This document shows, piece after piece, positions 8,828 to 27,499 of a stretch of DNA of 64,000 nucleotides. The stretch is from Synergistales bacterium (lineage in GTDB: Bacteria; Synergistota; Synergistia; Synergistales; JAFGMB01): the NCBI GenBank assembly GCA_963666205.1, contig OY762654.1, positions 2,016,001-2,080,000 of the forward strand, given 5' to 3'. Positions within the stretch are counted from its first letter, which is position 1; the number at the start of each line of letters is the position of its first letter. The notes under the pieces are model-generated. The model was not told the DNA's origin, did not search any database, and saw only the letters and a program-made list of their open reading frames with translations. Position numbers and translations under genes: made by a program.

Positions 8828-8845
8828 TACAATTTTTTGATCATC

Positions 8846-8879
8846 GGGGACATCTTTTTAACGGGTGTCCCTTTTTTTT
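8846..8879 (+). terminator. Intrinsic terminator or attenuator inside the cluster
   Basis: GGGACATC...GGTGTCCC followed by T8. Confidence 0.6.
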
Positions 8880-8896
8880 GGAAAGGAGAGGTTTAA

Positions 8897-9955: not shown

Positions 9956-9973
9956 CTAGGGAGCTGATATTTA

Positions 9974-11008: not shown

Positions 11009-11037
11009 GCTTTTTGTAGCGGAAGGTCGTGTGATTT

Positions 11038-12159
11038 TTGAAGATTACAGGAATGGAAGTTCTGCAGATCAGTGTCCCTCTCGTTCATAAATATACCCTT
11101 TCCAGGGTCATAGGTTCCAAGGAAAAGACAGAATGTATTCTTCTTAAGGTGACTACCGATGAAGGAATAGCAGGTCTTGGAGAAGCTGATCCCCATGTGC
11201 CGTTTACTGAAGAATCCGTGGAAAGTATTACCTCTTGTATATTGAAGTATCTTGCACCGGTCGTTATAGGAAAAGATCCGGGGGATATTGACGGTATAAA
11301 CTCACTGATGGAGAATGCTGTCAAACTAAACCTTATGGCCAAGGGTGCAATAGATATGGCCTGCTATGATATTGTCGGAAAATCAAAAGGGCACGCTGTT
11401 CATGAATTTATTGGAGGCCTTCAGAGACAGAGCATACCCCTTGTCTGGTCAGTGGGCAATGAGCTTCCTCCGAAGACCCTTGAAGATGTACAAACTGTTT
11501 ATGACCAGGGGTACAGAACGGTAATGATCAAGACCGGCCATTTTGAACCGGAGACAGATATTGAAAGAATAAGACTTGTAAGGGAATCATGGCCTGATCT
11601 GAAAATTATTGTAGATGTAAACCAGGGCTGGGATGTTGAAACAGCGATAGCTGCTGGCCGCAGGATGGAGAGCCTTAATATCGAATTCTTTGAACAGCCC
11701 GTTCCTTATTGGGATATAGAGGGTTTGGCCAGGATCAGAAAAGCAATATCCATTCCTCTTTCTGTAGATGAGTCCCTCCTTACCATACATGATGCACACA
11801 GAATCATCCAGGAGGGCGCTGCGGATATTTTCAGCGTCAAAGTTTCGAAGAACGGTGGAATTACCAGGTCAAGAGCATTGATCGAACTGGCAGCTGAAAA
11901 CGGAATGAAATGCTGGATGAATTCCATGCTGGAAGAAGGCATTACCCAGGCTGCAAGTCTGCAGTTGGGACTCAGCTCAGCCAACCTTCTTGATATGGGA
12001 CATGCATATTTTTCACCCCTCAGGATTGCGGAGGATATCTCTACCTACTCGGAGAATATCAGGAACGTGGAGATATTTCCTTCCGGGAAACCTGGACTTG
12101 GTGTAGATCTCAAAGAGGATGTTGTAAGGAAATACCTTGTCAGTCAATATCATTATTGA
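11038..12159 (+). CDS. Mandelate racemase/muconate lactonizing enzyme family (enolase superfamily)
   Basis: TDEGIAGLGE, IDMACYDI, metal ligands in VDVNQ/EQP/VDES, and a PGLG C-terminal motif. Confidence 0.88.
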   Translation: MKITGMEVLQISVPLVHKYTLSRVIGSKEKTECILLKVTTDEGIAGLGEADPHVPFTEESVESITSCILKYLAPVVIGKDPGDIDGINSLMENAVKLNLMAKGAIDMACYDIVGKSKGHAVHEFIGGLQRQSIPLVWSVGNELPPKTLEDVQTVYDQGYRTVMIKTGHFEPETDIERIRLVRESWPDLKIIVDVNQGWDVETAIAAGRRMESLNIEFFEQPVPYWDIEGLARIRKAISIPLSVDESLLTIHDAHRIIQEGAADIFSVKVSKNGGITRSRALIELAAENGMKCWMNSMLEEGITQAASLQLGLSSANLLDMGHAYFSPLRIAEDISTYSENIRNVEIFPSGKPGLGVDLKEDVVRKYLVSQYHY

Positions 12160-12221
12160 TTTGATATATATCTGGTAACTATTGTAAGTCTTTGCAAATT
12201 CAATATAGTTGATTTTGTTTC

Positions 12222-12253
12222 AGGTGGAGGACAAAAAGTCTCCACCTTTTTTA
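12222..12253 (+). terminator. Intrinsic terminator
   Basis: AGGTGGAG...CTCCACCT followed by a T-run. Confidence 0.7.
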
Positions 12254-12396
12254 TTTTTTTAAATTTATGATCTCTCCTCTGAATATCATTGAAAAAAGAA
12301 TTTTCTAAAAGGCTCTTGCCATGAAAGAAATATGTGACAAAATTCACCTATGCTTGAACCGCATGCAGAATACTATATACAATAGGAGGTCATGAG

Positions 12397-13470
12397 ATGA
12401 AAGCAGCCATGTGGTATGGACGTAAAGATGTTAGAGTCATAGAGACAGAAGAGCCTTCACCCGTAAAGGGAGAAGTTAAGGTAAAGGTCAAATGGTGCGG
12501 TATCTGCGGGTCTGATCTTCATGAGTTTCTTGGCGGACCCATTTTTATTCCTGTGGATCAGCCCCATCCCCTGAGTGGAGAAAAAGCACCTGTAATAATG
12601 GGTCATGAATTTTCCGGAGAAGTTGTTGAGGTAGGAGAAGGTGTGGATGCTTTCAAGCCCGGGGACAGGGTCATAGTGGAACCAATTCGTGCCTGTGGCA
12701 AATGCCCTGCCTGCAGGGAGGGCAAATACAACATATGCGCTCAGTTGGGTTTCCACGGACTTTGTGGTCATGGAGGCGGTTTTGCAGATTACACAACCTT
12801 CCCTGCTGAGTTCGTTCACAAGATCCCTGATGAACTCTCCTACGAAAAAGCAGCTCTTGTTGAACCCCTTGCGGTGGCTGTCCAGTCACTTCGTCAGGGG
12901 AGCTTCCAGATAGGAATGGATGCCCTTGTCCTTGGTGCCGGTCCTATAGGGCTTGCCACCGTGGCGTCCCTCAGGGCTGCGGGAGCCAGGACCATTTTTG
13001 TTATGCAGCGCAAGTCCATAAGGCAGGAATATGCCAAAATGAGCGGTGCCGACTATGTCCTGGATCCCAACGAAGGGGATGTAGTGGAAGAGATAAAAAG
13101 ACTTACAGGCGGAGAGGGTGTCCATGTAAGTTTCGAGGCGACCGGTTCAGAAGTGGGGCTTAACATGGCCATTGACGCTCTTCGTTTTTCTGGAACAGCA
13201 GTTATTACAAGTATCTGGGAGCATCCCATATCAGTGGACCCCAACAAGCTGGTATTCCAGGAAAAGAAAATGGTGGGATCCCTCTGTTACCGCGACCTTT
13301 TCCCGGCAGCCATCAAGATGCTTGCAGATGGCAGCGTAAAGGGAGATGAATGGATCACCAGAAAGATCCACCTGGAAAATATAGTAGAGGATGGTTTCGG
13401 GACCCTTACCGGACCTGACAAGAAAGCCCAGGTCAAGATCCTCGTAACACCAGAATCAGACCTGCTTTAG
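12397..13470 (+). CDS. Zn-dependent 2,3-butanediol dehydrogenase-like alcohol dehydrogenase
   Basis: CGICGSDLHE, GHEFSGEV, structural Zn site CxxCxxC...C, and GAGPIG. MKAAMWYG start is typical of BdhA-like proteins. Confidence 0.85.
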   Translation: MKAAMWYGRKDVRVIETEEPSPVKGEVKVKVKWCGICGSDLHEFLGGPIFIPVDQPHPLSGEKAPVIMGHEFSGEVVEVGEGVDAFKPGDRVIVEPIRACGKCPACREGKYNICAQLGFHGLCGHGGGFADYTTFPAEFVHKIPDELSYEKAALVEPLAVAVQSLRQGSFQIGMDALVLGAGPIGLATVASLRAAGARTIFVMQRKSIRQEYAKMSGADYVLDPNEGDVVEEIKRLTGGEGVHVSFEATGSEVGLNMAIDALRFSGTAVITSIWEHPISVDPNKLVFQEKKMVGSLCYRDLFPAAIKMLADGSVKGDEWITRKIHLENIVEDGFGTLTGPDKKAQVKILVTPESDLL

Positions 13471-13503
13471 AATAGATTCTTTTCATACCTTCTTCTCCTT
13501 ATT

Positions 13504-13538
13504 ACCGGGCCGCCTCAAAAGCGGCCCGGTCTTCTTTT
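13504..13538 (+). terminator. Intrinsic terminator
   Basis: ACCGGGCCGC / GCGGCCCGGT stem plus a T-rich tail. Confidence 0.75.
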
Positions 13539-13703
13539 GTTCCACTTTTGTAACAATGAAGTTTGTTTCAGATGAATGATAAAGATTTTCAGCATATAAC
13601 TTGCTTTATTGATTATTCACATCTCGTTATAATTATCTAAATTTCCCCAAATTATTTAGAGTTCAGATAGTGTATTTCTTTACCCTTCGAAGGAGGTATA
13701 TCC

Positions 13704-15553
13704 ATGATGAGAGACAAGAAGTTACTATGGTCCTTTTTATTTTCTGCTTTTTTGGTTTTCATGTTGGCTTTGTACTGCTTCTGCCTTTGCGAGTGCTCCA
13801 CCAACTGGGGAGATGTGAAATGGAACCATCAGATATCGTGCCTCGGTACTCTGTTTGGCGATCCCGGTTACTATTCTTCTCCTGATGGTGCTGAAACACG
13901 AGACTGGAATTTACCAGTGGTAAGAGGAACTTACCCCGATCCAGGTTATATTGTCGATGGAGCCTTCTCCTGATCATAGCCGGTTACACTTTTGATGCAC
14001 TGATCATAATCAGGACAACCGAGTTTAACCGGGGATCTTGACGGAACTGCCTGGTATAGCGGTGGCGATGAGATCGATCTCGTCTTTGTAAAGGATGAGG
14101 AGACATTGGGCGATTTCAGTGCCTCCTTTGATGTTCCGATTTTTCAAGGCCTTTACAATGGCCAATCTTGTGATTCCTAGCTTTCAGCTGGGACTTTACC
14201 CAGGAAGAAGCAAGGTTAATGACAGGAGTTCTACACGCGCCAAGATATGAATTCCCCCCTGTATTGACTGGAGATACTGCCAGTTGTGACATTGGAGTAG
14301 ATTCTGCTCGAATGAAACACCTTACCTTCGATATTTTTGTTGGCGTAAATCCGGTGAGGATATGCAATATGCCCGCTCTCTTTGGTCCTGTTACTTCCAC
14401 ATGAACTGTGATCATTGACCTGGGGCCTGGTTTTTCTTCGATTATGATGACAAGCCTCGGTGTTATCTATGCTAATTTCTGGAATGAGCCAGTAGTTATG
14501 GAATTATCCTCTGTATCACAGGGCCTTGAAGAGTCTCCAATGTACCGTACTTTGCGCACCGGATCTATACGGTGACGGTCCTCCTGCCATGGTGGTACCA
14601 GTCCTTGATGCAGATTATGTAATTGATCCCGGCTCTTGCCCTTGAAGGCTATACCTTTCGTATATGTATGAGGTAAGCAGAGAAGATTCATTCACTCGAT
14701 ATTAAGTTTACAGATGGCAGTGTTACCCATCTTTCCTGGTTGTGGTGCTGATCCCTGATTTATCAAGATGAACACAGTCCCAACGCTGCAGGGTTTTGCC
14801 GGAATGTATCCTCCCACATCTGCTGATCTTAATGCTCAAATCACTTGACGACAAGATCTTTAGAAGTCCTTAGTGTCGGATAATTTTGGCCCTTCAAGTT
14901 AAACTAGAGGATTTTAACATTGACAGTAATGCTTCTTCAGATGGGTGCAGTTTATCGGTCTGGTATCCATGGATATCAACATACCCTTCCAGGCTGATGT
15001 TATGAAGGCCAAATCGTAGCTGTACCAATGTGGGATTAAGGATCGGTATCCCCGGAAGAAACATCGAAGCAGTATGATCCTGACCTTGATTCAGACCATT
15101 GAATCGGCAGAATTGGGTGAGAATCCTACAGAAGAAGAACTGGAAGCAGTTAGTACGTAAATATCTTCTCATTCACCAAGGAATGGAGCACGGGAGAAAC
15201 TGCCCAGATCCGGATTGAGCGACGAGGAATTTGCAAGGATGCGGTGGATATCTTTCTTCGAAATACCATGGTGAGGGTGACGTCAGAGGAACATAATCTT
15301 ACGAGCTCACTCTGCTTATTGTTAATGGCGGAGAGCGCCGGAATGAGGTAGATTCTGCGACCGCAAATGGCCGGACTTACATTGTAATTTACGATGGAAA
15401 TCTGGATCTATCAGGTTCGCCGATCCCATCAAAATTGTTGCTGCCTACGAAGAAGATACATCCAGTTCAAGTGGCGGCGGATGTTCGGCTATTAGTCTTG
15501 TCCCTGCCGCAGGCCTGTTACTTCTGCCTCTGTTAATGCTTTTGAAGAAATAA
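13704..15553 (+). pseudogene. Multiply frameshifted Synergist-CTERM sorting-domain surface protein
   Basis: RBS AAGGAGGT and a signal-peptide-like start at 13704. Protein-like segments continue in alternating frames. The last segment (15422-15553) reads DPIKIVAAYEEDTSSSSGGGCSAISLVPAAGLLLLPLLMLLKK*. Confidence 0.8.
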
Positions 15554-15577
15554 CACAGATCAATTCCAGTTTGCCTG

Positions 15578-15606
15578 AAAGAGCGGGGAATTCCCCGCTC
15601 TTTTTT
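15578..15606 (+). terminator. Intrinsic terminator
   Basis: AAAGAGCGGGG / CCCCGCTCTTT stem plus a T-run. Confidence 0.75.
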
Positions 15607-15736
15607 AGTAGCTTCAAATTCTTTTGCTGTTGCCCCCATACCTTAAAACGTGCTAAAGTATTGCATGAATGAATTATAAAGTGTCATGATGTGGTTTTTC
15701 AAGCTTTTTAATATATCCTCCGGAAAGGTGAAAAAA

Positions 15737-16882
15737 ATGCATACCATCCCTTTTACCAGGCCCTATATCTCTGGTAATGAACAGGAATACATAGGTCGGT
15801 TATTCAACGACGGGATTTTTGCTGGAAATGGTACTTTTTCCAGGCAGGCAGAAGATATTCTTCTGGAACTGACAGGAGCCAGGGGGGTATTCCTGACTTC
15901 CTCCGGTACTGCAGCTCTTGAGCTCATGTGTATGACCGCCGGTCTTAAACCTGGAGATGAGGTCATTCTACCCTCTTTTACCTATCCTTCCACGGCCAAT
16001 GCAATACTCAGGGTAGGTGCAGTTCCTGTATTCGTGGACATCCGAAGAGATACCTTCAATCTGGACCAGGAGCTCATAGAAAAAGCCATCTCGGAAAAGA
16101 CTAAAGCAGTAATGCCCGTCCACTACGCCGGCGTTTCATGTGATATGGAGTTCATTCGGGATCTTGCAGATAAATACCATCTTCTTGTCCTGGAAGATGC
16201 GGCTCAGGCTATAGATGCGTACCATTATTCTTCCCACCTGGGTACCTTGGGACATATGGGTGCTTTGAGTTTTCATGAGACCAAGAATATCCATTCCGGT
16301 CAGGGAGGGGCACTGCTCATAAATGAAGAAGAGATGATCCACCAGGCAGAGATCATTTTTGATCATGGTACTAACCGCAGACAGTTCCTGAGAGGGGAAT
16401 CGGATTCTTATTCCTGGAAGGATTCCGGCTCTTCCTTTTCCATGTCCGAGATAACTGCGGCCTTTCTTTCTGCCCAGCTTGAATCGGTTTCATCGGTTAC
16501 TGAAGAGAGAAGAAATATCTGGCATCTTTATCATGAGGTCTTTGCAAAATATGAAGAAGAGGGTTTTCTTCGAAGACCGGTCATTCCGGAATACTGTAAA
16601 CACAATGGACATTGTTATCCTCTGCTTTTCCCATCTCTGGAAATTCGGGAGAATATCCGCCATGGGTTGTCCGAAAAAGGAATTATGGCCCATTTTCACT
16701 ATGTTCCTCTCCACTCATCAGCCATGGGCAGAAGGATCTCCAGGTGGGGGGCCGATCTTCCAAATACAGACCATGTTTTCCGTTGTCTTCTGAGGATGCC
16801 CCTTTACAGCGGCCTTGATATTGATGAATGCCTCGAGCGTATCGAAGAGCTGTTTTCAGCAGGATTTTTTGGGGGAAAATGA
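15737..16882 (+). CDS. rffA: dTDP-4-amino-4,6-dideoxyhexose transaminase (WecE/RffA-like, DegT family)
   Basis: TSSGTAALE, PVHYAGVSCDM, EDAAQA, SFHETKN (PLP lysine) and FHYVPLHSS motifs. Start placed at MHTIPF. Confidence 0.85.
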   Translation: MHTIPFTRPYISGNEQEYIGRLFNDGIFAGNGTFSRQAEDILLELTGARGVFLTSSGTAALELMCMTAGLKPGDEVILPSFTYPSTANAILRVGAVPVFVDIRRDTFNLDQELIEKAISEKTKAVMPVHYAGVSCDMEFIRDLADKYHLLVLEDAAQAIDAYHYSSHLGTLGHMGALSFHETKNIHSGQGGALLINEEEMIHQAEIIFDHGTNRRQFLRGESDSYSWKDSGSSFSMSEITAAFLSAQLESVSSVTEERRNIWHLYHEVFAKYEEEGFLRRPVIPEYCKHNGHCYPLLFPSLEIRENIRHGLSEKGIMAHFHYVPLHSSAMGRRISRWGADLPNTDHVFRCLLRMPLYSGLDIDECLERIEELFSAGFFGGK

Positions 16883-17587
16883 ATGATCAGGAACTCTGTA
16901 GCCATCCTTCAGTCGAATTATATTCCCTGGAAGGGAAATTTCGACATGATCAACATGGTGGATGAATACGTTATTCTGGATGATGTCCAGTACACTAAAA
17001 GGGATTGGCGGAATCGTAACCGCATTGTTACTAAAGATGGAATTAAATGGTTAACAATACCGGTAAGGAATATATCCTTTCATCAGAAGATAATGGATAC
17101 GGAGATCGTATCAGATGAATGGGCAGAAAAACACTGGAAACTTCTGGAACAGAGCTATAAAGGGGCTCCATTTTTTTCTGAACTGGGATCCTGTATAAAA
17201 GAAATGTATGAAAAAGCTTCCGGAGAAAATTCTCTCAGCAGGATAAATTATATTTTCCTTCAGGGGATCTGCGGTCTTCTCGACATCGTCACGGATATCC
17301 AATGGTCCACATGTTATCATCCGGAAGGTATGAAAAGCGACAGGATCCTTGATATATGTGTAAAAGCCAAAGCAGATGAATATCTTTCCGGCCCGGCTGC
17401 CCGGAACTATCTTGATGTGAATGCTTTTGAAAAAAGGGGTATAGCTGTTAAATGGATGTCCTACGATGGATATCCTGAGTACGGTCAGCTCCATGGTCAT
17501 CCCTTTTCTCACAATGTGAGTATTATTGACCTGCTTTTCTGTACCGGTGTGGGAGGGGCAAGGCGGAATATGTTATCGTTCTCTTAA
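16883..17587 (+). CDS. WbqC family protein
   Basis: AILQSNYIPWKG, DDVQYTKRDWRNRNRI, YLSGPAARNYL and SIIDLLF motifs. Confidence 0.9.
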   Translation: MIRNSVAILQSNYIPWKGNFDMINMVDEYVILDDVQYTKRDWRNRNRIVTKDGIKWLTIPVRNISFHQKIMDTEIVSDEWAEKHWKLLEQSYKGAPFFSELGSCIKEMYEKASGENSLSRINYIFLQGICGLLDIVTDIQWSTCYHPEGMKSDRILDICVKAKADEYLSGPAARNYLDVNAFEKRGIAVKWMSYDGYPEYGQLHGHPFSHNVSIIDLLFCTGVGGARRNMLSFS

Positions 17588-17630
17588 CTGCAGGTTTTAT
17601 GGTGAGATGCTGATTACTGGAGGAGCGGTT

Positions 17631-18302
17631 ATGAAAAAGGCGAAAAAGGACATTATCCTTTATGGAATTGGAATAATGGCTCACTATGTAACAAGGGTCA
17701 TAGAAAAACATAACCTTTTCAATATCGTGTCATACACAGCTGACGAAGAGTATATTGACAGAAGGGAATTTCTGGGTAAACCCATTGTTCCCTTCGAGAA
17801 AGTCGGGGACCTTTTTCCTCCCGATAAATTTCTCATGCTCCTTCTCATAGGATATAAACGAATGCGGGACAGGAAAAAAATGTTTCTCAAGGCTAAAGAG
17901 AAGGGTTATTCCCTTCCTAACTGTATAGCGGGAAATGTCAATTATTTTGATGACCTTATTCTCGGAGAGAACAACATAATATTCAGCGGGACCTATATAG
18001 GGGTCGGTTCTACCATAGGCAATAACAATATCATCCGCCCCAATGTATATCTTGGCCATAATGTTTCCATGGGTGATCATTGCTATATCTCACCTGGATG
18101 CAATATTGGCGGAGGCTGTATTATTGAGGACATGTCCTTCATAGGACTTGGGAGTAACATTACCGATGGATTGAGAATATCGAGAGAAAATCTTATAGGG
18201 GCTGGAAGCCTTGTCCTGAAAGATACAGATCCTTTCGGCAGATATATTGGAAGTCCAGCTGTCAGGAAGAGCAGCCATGAGGAAGAGGGAATAAACTTCT
18301 GA
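17631..18302 (+). CDS. Hexapeptide-repeat sugar acyltransferase (NeuD/PglD-like)
   Basis: N-terminal Rossmann-like part, left-handed beta-helix repeats (IGNNNII, LGHNVSMG, IGAGSLV) and YIGSPA. RBS GGAGGAG precedes 17631. Confidence 0.85.
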   Translation: MKKAKKDIILYGIGIMAHYVTRVIEKHNLFNIVSYTADEEYIDRREFLGKPIVPFEKVGDLFPPDKFLMLLLIGYKRMRDRKKMFLKAKEKGYSLPNCIAGNVNYFDDLILGENNIIFSGTYIGVGSTIGNNNIIRPNVYLGHNVSMGDHCYISPGCNIGGGCIIEDMSFIGLGSNITDGLRISRENLIGAGSLVLKDTDPFGRYIGSPAVRKSSHEEEGINF

Positions 18303-18327
18303 ATCCTTAAATAAGGGAGGCAGGAAG

Positions 18328-19188
18328 ATGACAGAGTTGATAGTGAATTTTACTCCAACCGGTATGATCCCGACAAAGGAAATGACATCGCATGTTCCCG
18401 TTTCAACGGATGAGATCGTGGAAGATGTACATGAAGCCTATGAACTTGGTATCACCATGGTCCATCTTCATGCCCGTGACCCGAAAGACGGAACCCCTAC
18501 ATGGTTCCCGGATATATATGCGGATATCATAGGAAGAATAAGATACTTCGCCCCGGATCTTATAATCTGTGCTTCCCTCAGTGGCCGTATCTTTCATGAT
18601 CTTGAAAAAAGAGCAGCTGTACTTGATCTCGACGGTGACTTGAAGCCAGATATGGGAAGCCTTACGCTTAGTTCCCTCAATTTCAACAGGCAGGCCAGTG
18701 TGAATTCACCTGAAGTGATCATGGGCCTGGCTTCACGCATGAAAGAGAGAAAGATCAAACCTGAGCTGGAAGCTTTTGATGCAGGTATGATAAATTATTC
18801 GAAATATCTTCTAAAGAAGGGTCTTCTTTCTCCACCCCATTATTTTAACCTTATCCTGGGCAATGTCGCCTGTGCACAGGCAGACCTCCTCCATGCCGGT
18901 CTCCTTATCAGGGATCTCCCGCCACAGAGTTACTGGTCACTGGGAGGTATTGGAGATCAGCAGATAGTAATGAATTCTGTTGCCATCTCAATAGGGGGTG
19001 GAGTAAGGGTGGGTCTCGAGGATAATTACTGGTTCGATTCGGGGAGAACAAAACTGGCCAGGAATATAGATCTTCTGCAGAGGATAAATGTTATAGCCCA
19101 GGCCAACGAAAGAAATATTATGAAGCCTGCGACTCTGAGAGAAAAGCTCGGATTAAAACCTGGCCATGGAGAATATGGGACTTTATGA
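18328..19188 (+). CDS. Beta-keto acid cleavage enzyme family (Kce/DUF849)
   Basis: NFTPTG, VHLHARD, PDMGSL, KPELEAFD and VRVGLEDN motifs. Confidence 0.9.
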   Translation: MTELIVNFTPTGMIPTKEMTSHVPVSTDEIVEDVHEAYELGITMVHLHARDPKDGTPTWFPDIYADIIGRIRYFAPDLIICASLSGRIFHDLEKRAAVLDLDGDLKPDMGSLTLSSLNFNRQASVNSPEVIMGLASRMKERKIKPELEAFDAGMINYSKYLLKKGLLSPPHYFNLILGNVACAQADLLHAGLLIRDLPPQSYWSLGGIGDQQIVMNSVAISIGGGVRVGLEDNYWFDSGRTKLARNIDLLQRINVIAQANERNIMKPATLREKLGLKPGHGEYGTL

Positions 19189-19203
19189 TCGAGGGATCAA
19201 TTG

Positions 19204-20235
19204 ATGAATACTGAAAAATGCTCTCCTCAAATTTCAATAGTTATACCTGTCTTTAACAGTGCTGAATCCCTGAAAGTACTGGTAGAAAAGATATCCTCTG
19301 TTATGGAAGATCGGTTGGGTTCCACATATGAGATCCTTTTTGTGGATGACTGCTCTCCTAATGAGCATACCTGGGAGATAATCCAAAGCCTTGCAGATAC
19401 AAAAGCGGAAGTTAAAGGGATAAGACTCCGGAAAAATGTCGGTCAGCATCAGGCTACCTTCTGCGGATTCTCCCTTGCATCCGGAGGCACTATCATAACC
19501 ATGGATGACGATCTGCAGCATGATCCTGGAGATATCCCCTTCCTTCTTGAATGCTCCGGGGCAGATGCGGTTATTGCAGTCTTTAAGAGTAAAAAACAGG
19601 GTTTATTCAGAAATATTACAAGCAGGATAAAGGAGTTTTTCGATACTGCCATTCTTAAAAAGCCATCAGACATTAAACTGACGTCGTCTTTCAGGGTCAT
19701 TAAAAAAGAGATCGTCAGGGAGATACTGAAAGTCCATACATCATTTCCCCTTGTGGGATCTCTTATCTGGTCTGTTACGGACAACATCGTCAACATTCCC
19801 CTTGACCATCATCCCCGTCATAGCGGGAAAAGCGGATATTCTTTTTTCAGAAGGCTGACATTATTCTCTAATCTTGTTTTTAATCACTCATCCCTGATCC
19901 TCAGGTTCATGTCAAAGCTGGGTATTCTTACAGCTTTTGCCGGGATCACTTTCGGTATTATCCTTGCAGGGAGGAAGATATTGTTTGGCAATGTGGCCCA
20001 GGGCTGGACTTCTCTGGAGGTCACTATCCTTGTATTAGGTGGTCTTATCCTTCTCTCCCTTGGTGTAATAGGGGAGTATCTATACAGAATACTTACGGCG
20101 GTGGAAATCCGGCCCCGTTATGTAATAGATTCTACGATCAATATAGATAAATTGCAGGAAGATAAGGAGCTTGGGAAGGATAACGTTTCTATTCCTGTAT
20201 TTGAAGCCTCCGAGGGCATAAAAAGGGGCCAATAG
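19204..20235 (+). CDS. GT2 polyprenyl-phosphate glycosyltransferase (ArnC/GtrB-like)
   Basis: ISIVIPVFN, VDDCSP, NVGQHQA, MDDDLQHDP, two C-terminal TM helices and IGEYL.RI. Confidence 0.9.
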   Translation: MNTEKCSPQISIVIPVFNSAESLKVLVEKISSVMEDRLGSTYEILFVDDCSPNEHTWEIIQSLADTKAEVKGIRLRKNVGQHQATFCGFSLASGGTIITMDDDLQHDPGDIPFLLECSGADAVIAVFKSKKQGLFRNITSRIKEFFDTAILKKPSDIKLTSSFRVIKKEIVREILKVHTSFPLVGSLIWSVTDNIVNIPLDHHPRHSGKSGYSFFRRLTLFSNLVFNHSSLILRFMSKLGILTAFAGITFGIILAGRKILFGNVAQGWTSLEVTILVLGGLILLSLGVIGEYLYRILTAVEIRPRYVIDSTINIDKLQEDKELGKDNVSIPVFEASEGIKRGQ

Positions 20236-20239
20236 AAAG

Positions 20240-20584
20240 ATGAAAGGAAAGGGTCTTTACGATCATTTAACTTTACAGATAGCTTATTTTATTTTCTCCC
20301 TGGCTGTCCTGAGCATGAAATATGCTTCAACCTTTGCTTTCGGCTCAGTTTCTTTCCTGAAATATTATCTTCTCTCCCTTCTCTTAATGGCCAGTTATGC
20401 TTTTTTCTGGCAGAAAGTCCTGGCCATTTATCCGCTTACCAGGGCTTATTCATGGAAATCCCTGGTATTCCTCTGGGTTTTTATTTTCTCAATTTTCCTT
20501 TTCAATGAATCGGTAACCTGGAAGAATATTGCCGGGGCACTTCTTATTGTTTCGGGAGCCATAATGGTGAACTCAAGTGAATAA
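20240..20584 (+). CDS. Small 4-TM SMR/EamA-like protein (ArnE/ArnF-type flippase subunit)
   Basis: 114 aa and hydrophobic. YPLTRAYS and FNESVT motifs. Confidence 0.75.
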   Translation: MKGKGLYDHLTLQIAYFIFSLAVLSMKYASTFAFGSVSFLKYYLLSLLLMASYAFFWQKVLAIYPLTRAYSWKSLVFLWVFIFSIFLFNESVTWKNIAGALLIVSGAIMVNSSE

Positions 20585-20912
20585 ATACTATATTTTCTTT
20601 CTTTCGGGAGTTCTTGTTTCATCTCTCGCCCAGATCATATTGAAAAAAAGTGCGGTCAGAAAATACTCTACGGTTTCAGGAAGATATCTGAACCCGGGAG
20701 TGTTTTCAGGTTATTTCATCTTATTCTGTGTAACCCTGCTTACGGCATTTGCCTACAGGGGTATACCTTTGAAGGCGGGTCCAGTCCTTCAGTCCTCAGG
20801 TTATATATTCATAGCCCTTCTTAGCAGGTTCCTCCTTGGAGAAAAACTCTCCTTAAGTCAGTGGAAGGGTATCTTTCTTATAATCACAGGTATTATCGTT
20901 TTTCACTTATAG
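20577..20912 (+). CDS. Small 4-TM SMR/EamA-like protein (ArnE/ArnF-type flippase subunit)
   Basis: 111 aa and hydrophobic. AQIILKKSA and LLGEKLS motifs. Overlaps the partner gene. Confidence 0.75.
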   Translation: MNKYYIFFLSGVLVSSLAQIILKKSAVRKYSTVSGRYLNPGVFSGYFILFCVTLLTAFAYRGIPLKAGPVLQSSGYIFIALLSRFLLGEKLSLSQWKGIFLIITGIIVFHL

Positions 20913-20921
20913 GAGGTATTC

Positions 20922-22691
20922 ATGAAGCCTTTACATCCTGAACCAGTTTACAGTAAATCAAACCTTTTTCTGAAGATCCTTATATTGGTCTGGCCTTTTC
21001 TTTTTATATGGCAGGGCGTAGATCTTACGGACACAGGATATCTCCTCTCAGGAGGGCAGCAGGTTTTTGTCGAGCCTCAGAATGTTCAGTTCAGCTATCT
21101 CCTTTCATTTGTTATCACGGGTATCTGGAGTCGTATTACAGCGTCCCTTGGATTGATGGGAGCCTATCTCGGGGGGGCCTTTCTTTACATCCTTACAGCT
21201 TTTTGTGTTTACAGGACTTTACGAAAACAGATGCCGGAAAGGATCCTGCTGTTGGGACTGCTTCTGGCCGTTATGATCCCCAATCTCATGAGATATATTA
21301 ATTACAACAACCTCACATCACTTTTCTTTGTCCTGGGGTCGGCTGTATTAATCAAGGCTTTCACCAGCCATAGAGAGTTCGATTACTTCCTTGCAGGGAT
21401 CATTTTCGGATCAAGCTTTTATCTTCGTCTGCCCAACCTGGTTTCCATTTCTCTGTCTTTAGTCATAGTGGCAGGACATTATCTCAATGGATCAGCCTGG
21501 AAAGACATTCTGAAAGGCTCTCTGTTTTTTATTTCAGGTTTTATTTCTGCTTTGATAGTGCCCTTTATGATCCTTCACATCTGGGGCCTGTCGGATCATT
21601 ATTTTGAGACATTTCAGCGCCTGTTGAGTTTTATGACAGATTCCTCCTCCCATCATTCAGGGGAAGGGCTGATACGTAAAGTGATCCTCGATTTTGACAG
21701 GACCTTTGCTGCGTTTTTTAAAAGTTTCATTATCCTTGCCATCCTGGCAAAAATAAACGATATCTTCCAGAGCCGCATCCTGCGTACAATTACCATAGTC
21801 CTTTCTCTTGCCGTTGTTTTCCTGATCGGATCAGGTTTTATAGGTAAGACGGCAGCTTATCATTACTATATTCTTGGCTTTATCGAATTTATGCTTCTCC
21901 TGCAGGTCCTGGGATTCACATCATCAGAGGGAGAGATCCGTTTTGCCAGTCTCTTGGCTTTTATGGTCATGATGTTCGGCATGGCCGGCTCCAACACTGG
22001 ACTGAGTGCCGCCCGTTATAACCTGTGGCTTGCTCTTCCTTTAAGCCTTCACGGTCTGTTTACCTTAAAAGGATTATATTTGTGCGAATTTCTCAACGTG
22101 GAGAAAGGAGTAAAAGTTCAGAATGGTGGGATATCACTGTTCAGCGAAAAGGGGATGAAAATGACAAGGAAAATCATCTCCATTTCCATGGCCCTGTTTT
22201 TCCTTATTCTGTGTTATCGTTTCAGTTATAAGGATTCAGAACAGAGATACCTGCTGCGTTACAATATCGACCACCCTAAGATGCAGTATGTCTTTACCAC
22301 CCGTGAAAGAGCTGAGGTAATGACAGAAGCGCTGAATGAGATCTCTAAATATGTTCTGCCAGGGGACTACCTCCTGGCATATAATTATGTACCTCTTTTC
22401 TATTACCTCACAGATACAAGACCCTATGTGTATCATTCCTGGCCGGAGATGTATTCTCCTGAACAGCTGATAGATAAACTTAAACAGGCTATCGCAGAGA
22501 GACATGGCCTTCCCCCTGTGATCAGGGCAAAGTATCCACCCCTTAACGATTCCTGGCCGGAGAAACATTTATCAGGCAGGGGGTCAGTCAGACATCACCA
22601 GGTCTTTGATGAATTTCTGAAACAGGGTAAATATCTACAGGTGTGGGAAAACGAGTTTTTCCAGATCCTTCTGCCGCCGTCGTCATGGTAG
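20922..22691 (+). CDS. Polytopic membrane protein, probable GT-C fold glycosyltransferase
   Basis: About 12 TM segments, an acidic GVDLTDTGY loop after the first helix, and a soluble C-terminal domain. Last gene of the GT2/flippase operon. Confidence 0.6.
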   Translation: MKPLHPEPVYSKSNLFLKILILVWPFLFIWQGVDLTDTGYLLSGGQQVFVEPQNVQFSYLLSFVITGIWSRITASLGLMGAYLGGAFLYILTAFCVYRTLRKQMPERILLLGLLLAVMIPNLMRYINYNNLTSLFFVLGSAVLIKAFTSHREFDYFLAGIIFGSSFYLRLPNLVSISLSLVIVAGHYLNGSAWKDILKGSLFFISGFISALIVPFMILHIWGLSDHYFETFQRLLSFMTDSSSHHSGEGLIRKVILDFDRTFAAFFKSFIILAILAKINDIFQSRILRTITIVLSLAVVFLIGSGFIGKTAAYHYYILGFIEFMLLLQVLGFTSSEGEIRFASLLAFMVMMFGMAGSNTGLSAARYNLWLALPLSLHGLFTLKGLYLCEFLNVEKGVKVQNGGISLFSEKGMKMTRKIISISMALFFLILCYRFSYKDSEQRYLLRYNIDHPKMQYVFTTRERAEVMTEALNEISKYVLPGDYLLAYNYVPLFYYLTDTRPYVYHSWPEMYSPEQLIDKLKQAIAERHGLPPVIRAKYPPLNDSWPEKHLSGRGSVRHHQVFDEFLKQGKYLQVWENEFFQILLPPSSW

Positions 22692-22763: not shown

Positions 22764-23633
22764 CTATTGCAGAAGTTCGATCAGGTATTTCCCATAACTG
22801 TTTCTGGAGAGAGGTCCTGCAAGTTTCTGCAGTTGTTCCCTGTTGATGAAACCCTTGTGAAAGGCTATTTCTTCAGGGCAGGAAACCATGAGTCCCTGCC
22901 TCTTCTGGATGACCTGTATGAAGTTCGATGCTTCCAGAAGGCTTTCATGGGTTCCTGTATCCAGCCAGGCAAAACCTCTCCCGAGGAGTTCGGTATGTAA
23001 TTCCTCTTTTTCCATGTAGAGCCTGTTAAGATCTGTAATCTCAAGTTCTCCCCGTTTTGAAGGTTTCAGGGTCTCAGCAAGTTCCACCACCTGTTCATCA
23101 TAGAAGTATAAACCCACGAGGGCATAGTTTGATCTTGGATGAAGGGGTTTTTCCTCCATGCTTATGACCTTTCCGGAACTGTCGAACTCAACAACTCCAT
23201 ATCTTTCAGGGTCTTTGACAGGATATCCGAATACGGTTGCTCCCTTATTCTGCCTGACCGCTTTTTCAAGAACTCCGCTGAAACCACTTCCGTAAAAGAT
23301 ATTGTCACCCAGTACAAGGGCACATCCTTGTCCTGAGATGAAGTCTTTCCCGATTATGAAGGCCTGGGGAAGTCCGTCAGGTTCTTTCTGTATGGCATAG
23401 GATATGGAAAGCCCCCACTGGGATCCGTCTCCAAGAAGCTGAACAAAGTCAGCTTTGTCCCGGGGCGTTGTTATGATAAGGATATTTCTGATACCGGCAA
23501 GCATCAATGTGCTCAAAGAGTAATAGATCATAGGTTTGTCATAAACCGGCATGAGCTGTTTGCTTACCGGAATGGTCAGAGGGTAGAGTCTTGTGCCGTA
23601 TCCTCCAGCCAGTATGATCCCCTTTTCTATCAT
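22764..23633 (-). CDS. rfbA: Glucose-1-phosphate thymidylyltransferase
   Basis: [39 protein letters not shown] and [11 protein letters not shown] motifs. Confidence 0.95.
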
Positions 23634-23650: not shown

Positions 23651-24715
23651 TCAGTATTTCCGTTCCCCGAGTCCGAGCCTTTCCATCCCATATTTACCCT
23701 TTGTAACTCCATTTATCCAGGACCTGTTTTCAAGATACCACCTGACAGTTTTTTCAAGGCCCGACTGAAAAGTCTCCCTGGGTTCCCAGCCTGTCTGTTT
23801 TCTTATTTTCCCGGAGTCCATGGCATATCTTCTATCGTGGCCAGGCCTGTCACCTACAAAATCTATGAGTTTTCTGAAGTCTTTGATCACCGGGTCGGGT
23901 TTCAATTTATTCAACAGATCGCATATATTCTCCACTACTTCCAGGTTGGATCTTTCGCAGTTACCCCCGATGTTATAGTTTTCGCCGGGTGTTCCCCTGG
24001 AAAGTACCGAGACCAGTGCCCTGCAGTGATCTTCAACGAAAAGCCAGTCTCTGATATTGGCTCCGTCACCATATACAGGTAATTTCTCTGACCTGAGAAT
24101 TTTCTCGATCATAAGGGGAATGAGTTTTTCCGGAAACTGAAAGGGGCCATAGTTGTTTGAGGAATTGGTTATTATTCCAGGCAGTCCATAGGTTGCATGG
24201 TATGCCCGTACCAGGTGATCAGAAGAGGCTTTTGATGCAGAATAAGGGGATCCCGGGGCATAGGGAGTGGTTTCTGTAAAATAACCTTCCTTACCCAGGG
24301 AACCGTAAACTTCGTCTGTTGAAACATGTAGAAATCTGAACCTGCGTTTATCTTCTTCAGAGAGGAAATTCCAGTAGTATCGTGTAGCTTCAAGGAGTTG
24401 AAAGGTGCCAGAGATATTAGTGTTTATGAAGTCTGCCGGATCATCTATGGATCGGTCCACATGGGTTTCTGCTGCAAGGTTTATCACGGCCCTGGGGGTA
24501 TATTTTTTTAAAAGGCTGGAAACGAGTGTACTATCCCCGATATCCCCCCTGACGAAGAGATGTCTCTCATGGCCAATTACATCGGAAAGTGAATCCATAT
24601 TCCCTGCATAGGTAAGTTTATCGAGGTTGATCACATTCCTTGATTCATGTAAAAGAAGATATTTTACCAGGTTGCTTCCTATAAAACCCGCTCCGCCTGT
24701 AACAAGGATAGTCAT
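23651..24715 (-). CDS. rfbB: dTDP-glucose 4,6-dehydratase
   Basis: [35 protein letters not shown] and [10 protein letters not shown] motifs. Start placed at MTILV. Confidence 0.95.
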
Positions 24716-24892
24716 GGCAGTCTCTCCGGATCTGAATTTTCCTTCTCTCTTATGAAGTGTACTTGAATTTGAATATTTATCCAAGCAATAGATATTCCTT
24801 TTTCTTAAACGCAAAAAGGGGAATTCCGGATTTCATCTTTCTCTGGAATCTTCAAGGGTTTCTGTTGCTGCTGTTCCCTTGATTATATCTTT

Positions 24893-24995: not shown

Positions 24996-26258
24996 ATGAA
25001 AAAGGTCTTATCGCTATTTATTACAGTTTTAATGTTCGTGCCCTCTCTTGCAGGGGCAGTGGAAATTGAGGAAGGACAGAGTCTGACCCTGGAACAATGT
25101 ATGGAGATCGCCCTCGAGATGCATCCGGATCTCCGGGGGGCAAAAGCCCGGATCGATGCCAGAGAAAGCGTCGTATCACAAGTCAGGACAGCCTGGAAAC
25201 CGGAGGTGGGTCTTTCCAGCAGTTATAACAGGCGTTCAGTAACTGATGATGGATACGACAGGTATTCCAGCAGCGTAAGTGTTTCTCAGCTTATAAGCGA
25301 TGGTGGGAAGACCAGGAGCCAGGTGAATGTGGCTGAAATAGATCTCCAGTCATCCGGATATGACTATGATGACATGGTCCAGGCCCTGATTTTTGATGTG
25401 AAGGATACTTATTTTGCTCTTCTCAGGGCAAATAAAGAAGAGGAAGTGGTTCAGGAAGCAGTGAAGATGTATGAACACCATCTGGAACAGGCCCGGGGAT
25501 ATTATGAGGTGGGAAGGGTTTCCAGATATGATGTGACCACTGCAGAAGTGGATCTCAGCAATGCAAGACTGAACCTTATCAGGGCAAAGACCTCTGTCAA
25601 AACGGCCAGGTCAGGTCTTAACAATGCCCTTGGTTATCCGGATGCACCCCTGTTCTCAATAGAAGACATGCTGACCTATGAGAAGATCGAACTTACCAGG
25701 GAAAAAGCTCTTGCAATGGCCTTCGATATGAGGCCTGACCTGAAGTCCCTGGAAGCAAAGAAAAGGGCCTCGGAAGAATCTGTTCTGCTTGCTGCAAGAT
25801 CCAATTCTCCAACCTTGTCTGCAACTGCAGGATATTCCTGGGGGGATGATGATTTTACTGGAGATGAAGAACTCTATGTCGGGATCTCCCTGAATGTATC
25901 TCTTTATGATGGAGGTCTGGCGAAGGAAAAAATAAGGGGAGCCCGGGCAGATCTTGCAGGAAAAGAGGCGGATCTTCAAGGCCTTGAACAGGATGTGATC
26001 CTGGAAGTGGAAAAGGCTTACCTGGAAGTAGAGGATTCAGAACAGGCCATTCTCACCGCAGACAAAATTGTTCAGCAGGCCAGGGAAAATCTGGATCTTG
26101 CCAACGGAAGATATGAGGTGGGAGTCGGTTCGCCTATTGAAGTAACGGATGCTACAGAAAATTATATCAATGCAAGGAATACATATTACACCGCTCTTTA
26201 CGATTATCGATCAGCCCTTGCGGCTCTGGAGAAAGCAATTGGAGGTAAGGTGAAATGA
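24996..26258 (+). CDS. TolC family outer membrane efflux protein
   Basis: Signal peptide, LTLEQCMEIALE.HP, RYEVGVGSPIEV and terminal LEKAIG. Confidence 0.9.
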   Translation: MKKVLSLFITVLMFVPSLAGAVEIEEGQSLTLEQCMEIALEMHPDLRGAKARIDARESVVSQVRTAWKPEVGLSSSYNRRSVTDDGYDRYSSSVSVSQLISDGGKTRSQVNVAEIDLQSSGYDYDDMVQALIFDVKDTYFALLRANKEEEVVQEAVKMYEHHLEQARGYYEVGRVSRYDVTTAEVDLSNARLNLIRAKTSVKTARSGLNNALGYPDAPLFSIEDMLTYEKIELTREKALAMAFDMRPDLKSLEAKKRASEESVLLAARSNSPTLSATAGYSWGDDDFTGDEELYVGISLNVSLYDGGLAKEKIRGARADLAGKEADLQGLEQDVILEVEKAYLEVEDSEQAILTADKIVQQARENLDLANGRYEVGVGSPIEVTDATENYINARNTYYTALYDYRSALAALEKAIGGKVK

Positions 26259-27499
26259 AGAAGATATTCCTGTCCCTTCTGGTAATCGTTTTCGGAGTAG
26301 GAGGGTTCCTGTTTTTTTACGGTAATAAGGGTAATTCCATTACAGTGGATAACACAACGGTTACAAAGGGAGATATCATAAAGGCCGTATCCGCTACTGG
26401 AACCCTTGAAGCAGTTAACACTGTCAATATTGGAGCCCAGGTTTCAGGCACAATAAAAAATATTTATGTTGACTATAATTCCACGGTTAAAAAGGGAGAC
26501 CTTCTTGCCGAGATAGATCCATCCCTCCTGTCTGCAAGGGTCAGGCAATCCAGGGCTGATGTTATGGCTGCAAAGGCAAATATACAGGAAGCACAGTCCA
26601 GTGTTAAGAATGCAAAAAAGACCAGGGATCGTAACAAAGAGCTTTTTGTGAGGGATCTCATAGCAGAGAGCGAACTTGATTCAGCCCAGACAGACTATGA
26701 AACAGCCATGGCAAAGCTGAATTCAGCCAAAGCTAATCTTGCCCAGGCTGAGGCAGACCTTGAATATGATGAAACCACCCTTGGTTATACAAAGATAATT
26801 TCTCCAATAAATGGTGTTGTTACAGACAGGGCAATAGATGAAGGACAGACGGTCAATTCCAGTCAGTCAGCACCCACTCTTTTCACTATAGCTGAAGATC
26901 TTGCCAGGATGCAGGTAGAGGCTGATATAGATGAGGCTGATATCGGCCAGATCAGAAAGGCTCAGGCTGTAGAATTCACCGTAGATGCCTATCCGGACCT
27001 GTCCTTTAACGGAGAAGTTGATGAGATAAGACTTGCACCTAATACTGAAGGGAATGTGGTAACCTACACCGTTATAGTGAAGGTTCATAACCCTGACCTG
27101 AAGCTTATGCCTGGAATGACTGCTAATGTTTCCATAATTTCCCAAAAACGGGAGGGAGTTTTCAGGGTTGCCAATTCGGCATTCAAATTTAAACCAGTAA
27201 CAAGTCTGATGGAGATGCCAGAAAGTCCTGGTGCAGCGGAGGGAGCCCAGCCCGGAAAGCAGGGACGGAGGCGGGAAGGTGCAGAGGTTGTCCGAAATGG
27301 TTCCGGTACCCCCAGGACCCTCTGGATCTACGAAAACGGAAAACTGAAGCCTCTTCCTGTAAAGACAGGTATCTCAGACGGTATGTATACTGAAATCTCA
27401 GGCGAACTTACCGAAGGTCTTGAAGTTGTTGTCAGCATATCTGGTGCTGACGATTCAAAAAAAGGAGGTTCTCCCTTTGGCTTTGGTCCTCGTAGATGA
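26255..27499 (+). CDS. Efflux periplasmic adaptor (MacA-like)
   Basis: SATGTLEAVNTVNIGAQVSG, ISPINGVV, IDEADIG and LMPGMTANV motifs. Confidence 0.9.
   Translation: MKKIFLSLLVIVFGVGGFLFFYGNKGNSITVDNTTVTKGDIIKAVSATGTLEAVNTVNIGAQVSGTIKNIYVDYNSTVKKGDLLAEIDPSLLSARVRQSRADVMAAKANIQEAQSSVKNAKKTRDRNKELFVRDLIAESELDSAQTDYETAMAKLNSAKANLAQAEADLEYDETTLGYTKIISPINGVVTDRAIDEGQTVNSSQSAPTLFTIAEDLARMQVEADIDEADIGQIRKAQAVEFTVDAYPDLSFNGEVDEIRLAPNTEGNVVTYTVIVKVHNPDLKLMPGMTANVSIISQKREGVFRVANSAFKFKPVTSLMEMPESPGAAEGAQPGKQGRRREGAEVVRNGSGTPRTLWIYENGKLKPLPVKTGISDGMYTEISGELTEGLEVVVSISGADDSKKGGSPFGFGPRR

Follow-up and report, generated by a model that had tools for sequence, protein, structure and literature searches.

A conserved BKACE-family gene beside a sugar N-acyltransferase gene in an Arn-like operon of a Synergistales bacterium: a candidate source of a non-standard acyl-CoA

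Many of the N-acyl groups found on bacterial surface sugars have genetically unassigned donors. In the anthrose operon antABCD of Bacillus anthracis, an unusual acyl-CoA (coenzyme A thioester) is made and a hexapeptide N-acyltransferase loads its acyl group onto the dTDP-4-amino-4,6-dideoxyhexose formed by a DegT-type aminotransferase; the donor is produced by an enoyl-CoA hydratase acting on an intermediate of leucine catabolism, and the glycan is assembled by ordinary glycosyltransferases. Enzymes that cleave beta-keto acids (the BKACE family, also classified as DUF849 or Pfam PF05853) include Kce, a TIM-barrel enzyme of lysine fermentation in Cloacimonas acidaminovorans (PDB 2Y7D-G). The view of this family as mostly catabolic, taken in a first-pass annotation of the locus described here, holds for most characterised members but not for BsfD, which a preprint presents as biosynthetic and non-canonical (bioRxiv 10.64898/2026.01.15.699783). 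Here we analyzed a BKACE gene at positions 18328-19188 (+) of a 64,000-nucleotide stretch of a Synergistales genome (contig OY762654.1, positions 2,016,001 to 2,080,000; hereafter the window), which lies directly between an acyltransferase gene and a GT2 glycosyltransferase gene.

As judged from its sequence, the gene encodes a real, intact and conserved enzyme of an uncharacterised BKACE subfamily. An active zinc-dependent enzyme with a biosynthetic role is the best explanation of the conserved residues and genomic context, and likewise the subfamily is best explained as distinct and horizontally spread. We further propose, with moderate confidence, that the enzyme provides the neighbouring N-acyltransferase with a non-standard acyl-CoA, so that the BKACE-acyltransferase pair represents a testable candidate route to surface-sugar acyl groups.

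The BKACE open reading frame (ORF) is open over 286 amino acids, and its product, the sole BKACE of the 2.95-Mb single-contig genome, matches PF05853 over its full extent, residues 4-276 aligning with profile positions 2-274 out of 274 (256 bits, cut-off 24.8; E 5.2e-76). Upstream, the acyltransferase ORF stops at 18302, leaving a gap of 25 bp to the BKACE ATG at 18328, which is immediately preceded by a AAGGGAGG ribosome-binding site. Downstream, the stop codon (19186-19188) is followed by a TTG at 19201 (12-bp gap) or an ATG at 19204 (15-bp gap) as the start of the GT2 gene, and GAGGGA precedes the ATG. The spacings of 25 and 15 bp on the same strand reported by the first-pass annotation were confirmed, the latter for the ATG start, as were the HxH and RVGLEDN motifs, which the translation shows within VHLHARD (H46, H48) and GGGVRVGLEDN (residues 223-233). 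No terminator-like site was found at either of the two BKACE junctions, and the 17 weak ones in 15686-22691 are no excess over the 12.0 ± 3.9 expected in shuffled sequence.

Most of the operon is covered by contigs that come from RNA libraries of two studies and are 95-99% identical to the window; one contig spans 15600-19127, while others bridge 17385-18725 and 18952-19841, so that the junctions from WbqC through the acyltransferase to BKACE and from BKACE to GT2 are bridged. Such contigs show no transcript, strand or level, stretches without cover (e.g., 21999-22472) are uninformative, and the cover is a weak hint of expression, given possible DNA carry-over. In RNA-library contigs from a related strain, the BKACE gene has one extra nucleotide after 18637 and lacks one at 18642, which amounts to a compensated shift over two codons.

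Among solved structures, the closest relatives of the BKACE are 3no5 (E 9e-37) and Kce (2y7d, E 7e-33, full-length alignment), while 9zsc, whose record says only 3-keto-5-aminohexanoate cleavage protein and which is possibly BsfD, matches at E 1e-24 only. The protein scores below all four BKACE equivalog or exception cut-offs in NCBIfam, including those of the Kce equivalog NF052387 (210 bits, cut-off 382), the 3-oxoadipate enzyme model (176, cut-off 350) and the 3,5-dioxohexanoate enzyme model (144, cut-off 430). Besides, Ile14 stands at the position of Kce Glu14, the residue that binds the substrate amino group, and the subfamily has Ile in 74 of 76 sequences and Leu in the other two. These scores and this replacement rule out Kce as the identity of the protein, and the same Kce score and residue make a 3-aminobutyryl-type product, which the first-pass annotation had cited from lysine fermentation, unlikely.

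The subfamily alignment (76 sequences) and a structure alignment including 2y7d, 3no5, 3fa5, 3chv and 3lot indicated that the catalytic apparatus is intact. H46, H48, S83, S111, E148, F150, G225, R227, E231 and D232 are invariant in all 76 sequences, and long motifs such as PTGMIPT, GSLTLSS.NFN and GMINY show little or no variation. The zinc ligands of Kce, H46, H48 and E230, correspond to H46, H48 and E231. Additionally, E148 aligns with the catalytic base (Kce E143, PdKce E171) and R227 with the conserved Arg (Kce R226, PdKce R254); the roles of this Glu and Arg, with E171 as an essential base, are given in a study of PdKce (PMC11961710). Together with the 65-72% identity across 13 phyla, the invariant residues point to strong constraint on the enzyme.

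Two further positions depart from Kce. The Gly of GGGV occupies the place of Kce His224, also His in 3no5, 3fa5 and 3chv and Asp in 3lot. The first-pass annotation was right that His is replaced there, whereas its description of a missing third His was a misnomer, since the position is variable, as the Asp in 3lot indicates, and the Kce zinc ligands are H46, H48 and E230. GGGV accompanies the full set of catalytic and metal residues in 76 of 76 sequences, so that, on the alignment, it is a subfamily signature and not a defect or a lost metal ligand. The other position is Phe150, invariant in the subfamily, at the site of the canonical Tyr (Kce Tyr145, PdKce Tyr173); the solved relatives 3no5, 3fa5 and 3chv likewise have Phe. 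According to the preprint, canonical BKACEs place this Tyr near the CoA sulfur, and Phe is given for two enzymes, BsfD and RaKce, the reaction of the latter being undetermined (bioRxiv 10.64898/2026.01.15.699783).

Of 8,000 candidates scored in a protein search, 7,868 were matches; the top 120 were all 66-100% identical to the query and belonged to Synergistales, Bacteroidales, Chloroflexota, Acidobacteriota and other taxa. Among species-representative genomes, 349 stretches encode a BKACE relative, and gene neighbourhoods were surveyed in the best 80 of these 349, up to 10 kb on each side; one locus (L039) was dropped, its BKACE having been missed by the ORF caller, and the remaining 79 plus the window make up the 80 loci counted below. 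ORFs were called by the longest-ORF rule, and neighbours were clustered by BLASTP and the clusters named with Pfam. Within the order, 5 of 61 genomes including its own have a BKACE match (itself, three of four others of its family, and a distant one at 49% identity), indicating that the gene is accessory and patchy. Among named relatives, the locus is nearest to that of a metagenome-assembled genome of Acetomicrobium hydrogeniformans (L007, 96% protein identity), which makes an Acetomicrobium the probable origin of the window. The 49%-identical relative, from another Synergistales family, is flanked by a hexapeptide ORF and a GT2 gene, and a DegT gene lies upstream.

The first-pass annotation had named uniqueness of the adjacency to this genome as a result that would overturn its proposal; instead, an acyl-transfer gene lies directly next to the BKACE gene in 57 of the 80 loci and in 12 of 13 phyla. 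Acyltransferase clusters account for 53 of 153 immediate neighbours (35%), against 8 of 403 genes located four or more genes away (2%). The adjacent enzymes comprise hexapeptide transferases, four GNAT-type clusters and the condensation (C) domain of non-ribosomal peptide synthetases (NRPS). The hexapeptide acyltransferase of the window type is found immediately upstream on the same strand in 24 loci. In 17 loci, a 215-amino-acid protein occupies one of the two flanking positions, whose Pfam GNAT match is below threshold (E 0.002) and whose AlphaFold2 (AF2) model, with a predicted local distance difference test score (pLDDT) of 87, matches GNAT structures (VipF, E 5.5e-7; PamZ; a glucosamine N-acetyltransferase); further loci have Acetyltransf_9, Acetyltransf_6 or another weak GNAT cluster. 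An NRPS condensation domain adjoins the BKACE in three loci (L034:10868-14182, L059:4064-9955 and L086:10827-12161; built as C-A-T, C-A-T-TE-TPR or a stand-alone C), a hint that lipopeptide-like products, too, may be started with this acyl donor. AMP-binding enzymes are encoded nearby in L059 and L086. DegT-type aminotransferases occur in 23 of the 80 loci, and the cassette DegT-WbqC-acyltransferase-BKACE is common to Synergistota and Bacteroidota, sitting in the latter in Wzx-type polysaccharide clusters and not in an Arn-like operon.

Natural fusions, searched for among longer proteins, tie the BKACE independently to acyl transfer and amino-sugar pathways. Two proteins (P0121 and P0122) have a C-terminal PglD_N/Hexapep acyltransferase behind a BKACE domain that is 66% identical to the query and keeps both GGGV and the Phe, while P0125 and P0129 have an N-terminal GNAT domain and a BKACE 47-50% identical to the query. 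In P0123, P0124, P0126, P0128 and P0130, an N-terminal BKACE (47-51% identical) is joined to a divergent C-terminal DegT-type aminotransferase, and one further BKACE is fused to an aldo/keto reductase. P0123, the sole BKACE-DegT fusion whose sequence was inspected, looks very AT-rich in composition. A maximum-likelihood tree of 83 rows, built quickly and with no characterised BKACE as outgroup, unites the 78 unfused sequences in a single group, separate from the GNAT and DegT fusions, with good support (99). Partner types are clustered on this tree (28 changes, compared with 56 with shuffled labels) with several switches, and the WbqC cassette falls into a Synergistota clade (support 99) and a separate Bacteroidota clade (support 100); the WbqC- and sugar-linked members, which the first-pass annotation had proposed to test for a clade, thus do not form a single one. 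Taken together, the adjacency, the fusions and the invariant catalytic residues make the predicted functional link between the BKACE and N-acyltransferases well founded.

The genes around the BKACE in the window are as follows.

15686-16882, + strand: DegT/WecE-type dTDP-4-keto-6-deoxyhexose 4-aminotransferase (Pfam DegT, E 7.7e-85)
16883-17587, + strand: WbqC-family protein, 234 amino acids (Pfam WbqC, E 1.1e-72)
17526-18302, + strand: hexapeptide-repeat sugar N-acyltransferase, NeuD/PglB/VioB family (Pfam Hexapep, TIGR03570)
18328-19188, + strand: BKACE/DUF849 enzyme of the GGGV/Phe150 subfamily, 286 amino acids (Pfam PF05853, PDB relatives, invariant residues)
19201-20235, + strand, probable ATG at 19204: ArnC/GtrB-like GT2 polyprenyl-phosphate glycosyltransferase (Pfam GT2)
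20240-20584 and 20577-20912, + strand: two small EamA/SMR-like membrane proteins of 111-114 amino acids, a candidate ArnE/ArnF-like flippase pair
20922-22691, + strand: membrane protein of 589 amino acids, a candidate GT-C (ArnT/PMT-like) transferase, weakly assigned
22764-23633, - strand: rmlA (TIGR01207, 484 bits, above cut-off)
23651-24814, - strand: rmlB (TIGR01181, 485 bits, above cut-off)

The gene order on the + strand, from DegT through WbqC, the acyltransferase, BKACE, GT2 and the ArnE/F-like pair to the GT-C candidate, looks like an Arn-type, lipid-linked pathway for an N-acylated dTDP-4-amino-4,6-dideoxyhexose. The DegT/WecE protein exceeds the cut-off of NF008687, the dTDP-4-amino-4,6-dideoxygalactose transaminase model (463 bits against 375). 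The acyltransferase matches TIGR03570 at E 2.3e-42 (145 bits, under the cut-off of 160.8), with perosamine N-acetyltransferase PerB (4ea7, E 7e-19), PglD, QdtC and VioB (7txp) as its best solved relatives. Its listed TTG start (17526) overlaps the WbqC gene by 62 nt (17526-17587), and the true start is probably downstream, since residue 43 is the first that the family match covers. The GT2 matches the structures of ArnC (9hwj, E 4.9e-41) and GtrB (5ekp, E 1.9e-31) and scores 161 bits in NF007986, under its cut-off of 529. Matches of the two small proteins were weak for EamA (E 1e-5 and 1.6e-7) and far under the cut-offs for the NCBIfam models ArnF/ArnE (E 3.7e-7 and 3.5e-6); the 589-amino-acid protein reached 23.3 bits in PMT_2 (E 8.4e-5, cut-off 26.1) and had no match in NCBIfam and no PDB sequence match. 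The rmlA and rmlB genes, whose enzymes yield dTDP-4-keto-6-deoxyglucose, lie just downstream on the opposite strand, converging on the operon end. No operon protein matched a deacetylase family in a Pfam search of the operon only, so that no ArnD-like deacylase was found there, and no lysine-fermentation genes lie by the BKACE gene, its neighbours being all sugar-nucleotide or glycosyl-transfer genes. The genome also encodes two pairs of CoA-transferase subunits, candidates for disposal or recycling of acetoacetate; an acetoacetate decarboxylase family was not found in the genome.

Other features of the window lie outside the operon. A strong terminator (13504-13530) follows an alcohol dehydrogenase gene upstream and is separated from the operon by 2.2 kb (13531-15685) without an ORF of more than 99 amino acids. 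This stretch is only 72% identical to that of a related species, compared with 91-96% for the flanking proteins, is closed by a perfect 26-nt palindrome (15578-15603), and might be either the remains of a gene or a regulatory or non-coding region; Rfam gave zero matches in 13400-15800. Further upstream, 7700-13470 (+) encodes an octopine/nopaline-dehydrogenase-like protein, two ornithine-cyclodeaminase/SbnB-like proteins, an enolase-superfamily (MR/MLE) enzyme and a Zn-dependent alcohol dehydrogenase, a block that may represent an imino-acid or opine-type amino-acid pathway. Directly past rmlB, 24996-29392 (+) encodes a TolC-like outer-membrane protein, a MacA-like adaptor, and a MacB-like ABC ATPase and permease as separate genes.

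The WbqC-family protein was characterized through its AF2 model (pLDDT 86). Foldseek found no match to this model at E <= 0.001 (best E 0.018), and a wide search with VIA-align matched it to BshC (4wbd; Z 14.5, 221 of 234 residues, root-mean-square deviation 3.3), followed by class I lysyl-tRNA synthetase (Z 11.7), glutamyl-tRNA synthetase (about 9) and MshC (7.1). The likeness of the model to BshC and class I aminoacyl-tRNA synthetases suggests that WbqC is a putative ATP-dependent amide ligase that would put an amino acid or another acid on the sugar amine. The family is named from an O-antigen with an N-acetylglycyl amino sugar, which fits the ligase reading. WbqC is present in 11 of the 80 BKACE loci (10 found through ORF clustering; in L008, an eleventh copy is truncated by the end of the contig), and the acyltransferase lies between WbqC and BKACE in 10 of these 11, L057 having WbqC directly downstream of BKACE. 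Long WbqC relatives include tandem WbqC proteins and fusions to GNAT, hexapeptide, DegT, GT2, GT-C and YbhN-type domains. The first-pass annotation had offered the acyltransferase or WbqC as recipient of the acyl-CoA; the link to the acyltransferase gained support from the 57 loci and the fusions, and that to WbqC did not, given its occurrence in 11 of 80 loci.

Under the proposed route, the BKACE would take acetyl-CoA and a small beta-keto acid from general metabolism and form from them acetoacetate together with a non-standard acyl-CoA. RmlA and RmlB would make dTDP-4-keto-6-deoxyglucose, which the WecE-like aminotransferase would turn into a dTDP-4-amino-4,6-dideoxyhexose. WbqC, as a BshC-like putative ligase, may add an amino acid first, and the acyltransferase would then transfer the acyl group made by the BKACE to the free amine. 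The ArnC-like GT2 would subsequently place the sugar on undecaprenyl phosphate, the ArnE/F-like pair would flip the lipid-linked sugar, and the GT-C candidate would pass it to an acceptor in the envelope.

Supply of a donor appears the most economical role for the BKACE, because acyltransfer partners whose folds are unrelated and whose acceptors differ (a sugar nucleotide, a GNAT substrate or a carrier-bound amino acid) would have an acyl-CoA donor in common. Moreover, the PdKce study describes a BKACE active site with a single entry channel that is filled by acetyl-CoA (PMC11961710), which makes a bulky substrate such as an acylated sugar nucleotide unlikely. The lack of a conserved keto-acid-forming gene nearby favours a common metabolite as substrate, and candidate donors would be, for example, oxalyl-CoA from oxaloacetate, formyl-CoA from malonate semialdehyde, or a C4 acyl-CoA from a C6 keto acid. 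Small products have precedents. The BKACE relative ObcA acts on oxaloacetate; it is named in the BsfD preprint (bioRxiv 10.64898/2026.01.15.699783). More than 20 of 124 BKACEs are reported to convert malonate semialdehyde to formyl-CoA, and a BKACE of deoxyribonate catabolism is reported to yield glyceryl-CoA.

Several observations weigh against donor supply by the BKACE. An acyl-transfer gene is not directly adjacent in 23 of the 80 loci, Nitrospirota having one in 0 of 3 loci and Planctomycetota in 5 of 16; several Planctomycetota loci have a DegT and a hexapeptide gene two to three genes from the BKACE. These counts are approximate because longest-ORF calling is crude. No conserved gene making a beta-keto acid was found near the BKACE in the 80 loci, and the five BKACE-DegT fusions fit pathway membership without pointing specifically to donor supply. 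The acyl group and the keto acid are both candidates only, and Phe150 in place of Tyr leaves room for a non-canonical reaction such as that of BsfD, with no retro-Claisen step and no release of an acyl-CoA.

The last of these points defines the main rival, flagged by Phe150, in which the enzyme would perform C-acetylation and decarboxylation without retro-Claisen cleavage and thereby form a 1,3-dicarbonyl instead of an acyl-CoA. In one version, an N-malonyl group installed by the acyltransferase (a malonamate-type head) would become N-acetoacetyl, a precursor of the common N-3-hydroxybutanoyl group. Malonyl-CoA is universal, so that no extra gene for keto-acid supply would be needed, which fits the lack of one nearby, and Phe150 is invariant where canonical BKACEs carry Tyr; according to the preprint, BsfD with its Phe makes 2,4-dioxopentylphosphonate and not phosphonoacetyl-CoA plus acetoacetate (bioRxiv 10.64898/2026.01.15.699783). 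However, the preprint leaves the Phe unproven as the cause of the altered chemistry, the F166Y mutant having been insoluble, and describes an insertion of about 20 residues with Arg91 as a special feature of BsfD itself (bioRxiv 10.64898/2026.01.15.699783). Phe is also carried by the solved relatives 3no5, 3fa5 and 3chv, a substrate linked to a sugar nucleotide would be hard to fit into a channel described as filled by acetyl-CoA in the PdKce study (PMC11961710), and hexapeptide, GNAT and NRPS C partners with different acceptors fit a shared small donor better than a shared acylated product. We therefore regard BsfD-like chemistry as unlikely, while treating it as the alternative that deserves most attention.

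The other alternatives fare worse. That the free acid, acetoacetate or another, is the useful product, which the BshC-like WbqC would activate with ATP and attach to the sugar amine, would agree with the resemblance of the WbqC model to BshC, MshC and class I aminoacyl-tRNA synthetases, all of which form acyl-adenylates, and with the presence of WbqC in the cassette here and in 10 other loci. Nonetheless, WbqC is absent from 69 of the 80 loci, whereas acyltransferases are the constant partner; the acyltransferase separates WbqC from BKACE in all but L057 of the loci that have it, and the WbqC substrate is itself only conjectured, making this scenario improbable. An ordinary catabolic BKACE, Kce or another keto-acid degrader, placed in a sugar operon by chance could appeal to the mostly catabolic roles of characterised members (lysine fermentation, and phloroglucinol, deoxyribonate and aromatic degradation), but it is contradicted by synteny in 57 of 80 loci and 12 of 13 phyla and by the acyltransferase fusions. 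Besides, this is the only BKACE of the genome, the operon has no catabolic partner genes, the Kce equivalog score is 210 against 382, and the gaps of 25 and 12-15 bp contain no terminator-like site, so that a chance location seems very improbable. Even less credible is a BKACE that is dead or only structural, for which the sole argument is the replacement by Gly of the His that precedes RVG in Kce, 3no5, 3fa5 and 3chv: this Gly occurs in 76 of 76 sequences together with every catalytic and metal residue, 3lot has Asp there, and 65-72% identity across phyla indicates purifying selection.

A broader proposal, which we consider doubtful at this stage, is that the subfamily and an N-acyltransferase of any fold form a portable module installing an acyl group not otherwise held as a CoA ester. 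The acyl group could then be oxalyl, formyl or, with BsfD-like chemistry, a C-acetylated or acetoacetyl group, and the targets could be surface amino sugars and, through GNAT or NRPS partners, other amines, in at least 13 phyla. If true, such a portable BKACE-acyltransferase route to glycan acyl diversity would be general and so far undescribed; our literature search, which did not extend to the founding BKACE papers and supplements, found no paper linking BKACE/DUF849 to sugar or other N-acyltransferases. The subfamily has close relatives in at least 349 contig stretches of species-representative genomes, and thousands of family homologues are found among metagenome proteins. Once the product is identified, a large BKACE subfamily without characterised members would gain an annotation, a mainly catabolic family would reach into glycan biosynthesis, and it would become clear whether the change from Tyr to Phe marks a different reaction. 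In the locus described here, the proposed BKACE module would feed an Arn-like pathway of lipid-linked modification in the little-studied phylum Synergistota.

Compared with known systems, the BKACE of the window has the HxH motif, catalytic Glu (E148), Arg and ED pair of Kce, and from its family membership a Kce-type reaction of a beta-keto acid and acetyl-CoA to acetoacetate and an acyl-CoA would be expected. It differs from Kce in having Ile for Glu14, Phe for Tyr145 and Gly for His224, and in its context of glycan biosynthesis with an acyltransferase as constant partner. With BsfD, which makes flavophos (2,4-dioxopentylphosphonate) in Burkholderia, it has in common the BKACE family, a biosynthetic setting and Phe at the Tyr site, whereas BsfD acts on a phosphonate keto acid, stops after acetyl transfer and decarboxylation at a diketone product, and sits in a phosphonate cluster without an acyltransferase partner (bioRxiv 10.64898/2026.01.15.699783). 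The Arn pathway (ArnB, ArnA, ArnC, ArnD, ArnE/F and ArnT) follows the same sequence of steps, namely a 4-amino sugar nucleotide, N-acylation, a GT2 (at E 4.9e-41 to ArnC in the window), a flippase pair and a GT-C enzyme. Its sugar is UDP-L-Ara4N, compared with a dTDP-6-deoxyhexose here, and its acylation is carried out by the folate-dependent ArnA, in place of which the window has a hexapeptide transferase and the BKACE; unlike the Arn pathway, the operon has no ArnD-like deacylase, and its flippase and GT-C assignments are weak. The anthrose operon, finally, follows the same logic as the proposed route, in which a dedicated donor enzyme is paired with an acyltransferase, the donor enzyme there belonging to a family other than BKACE.

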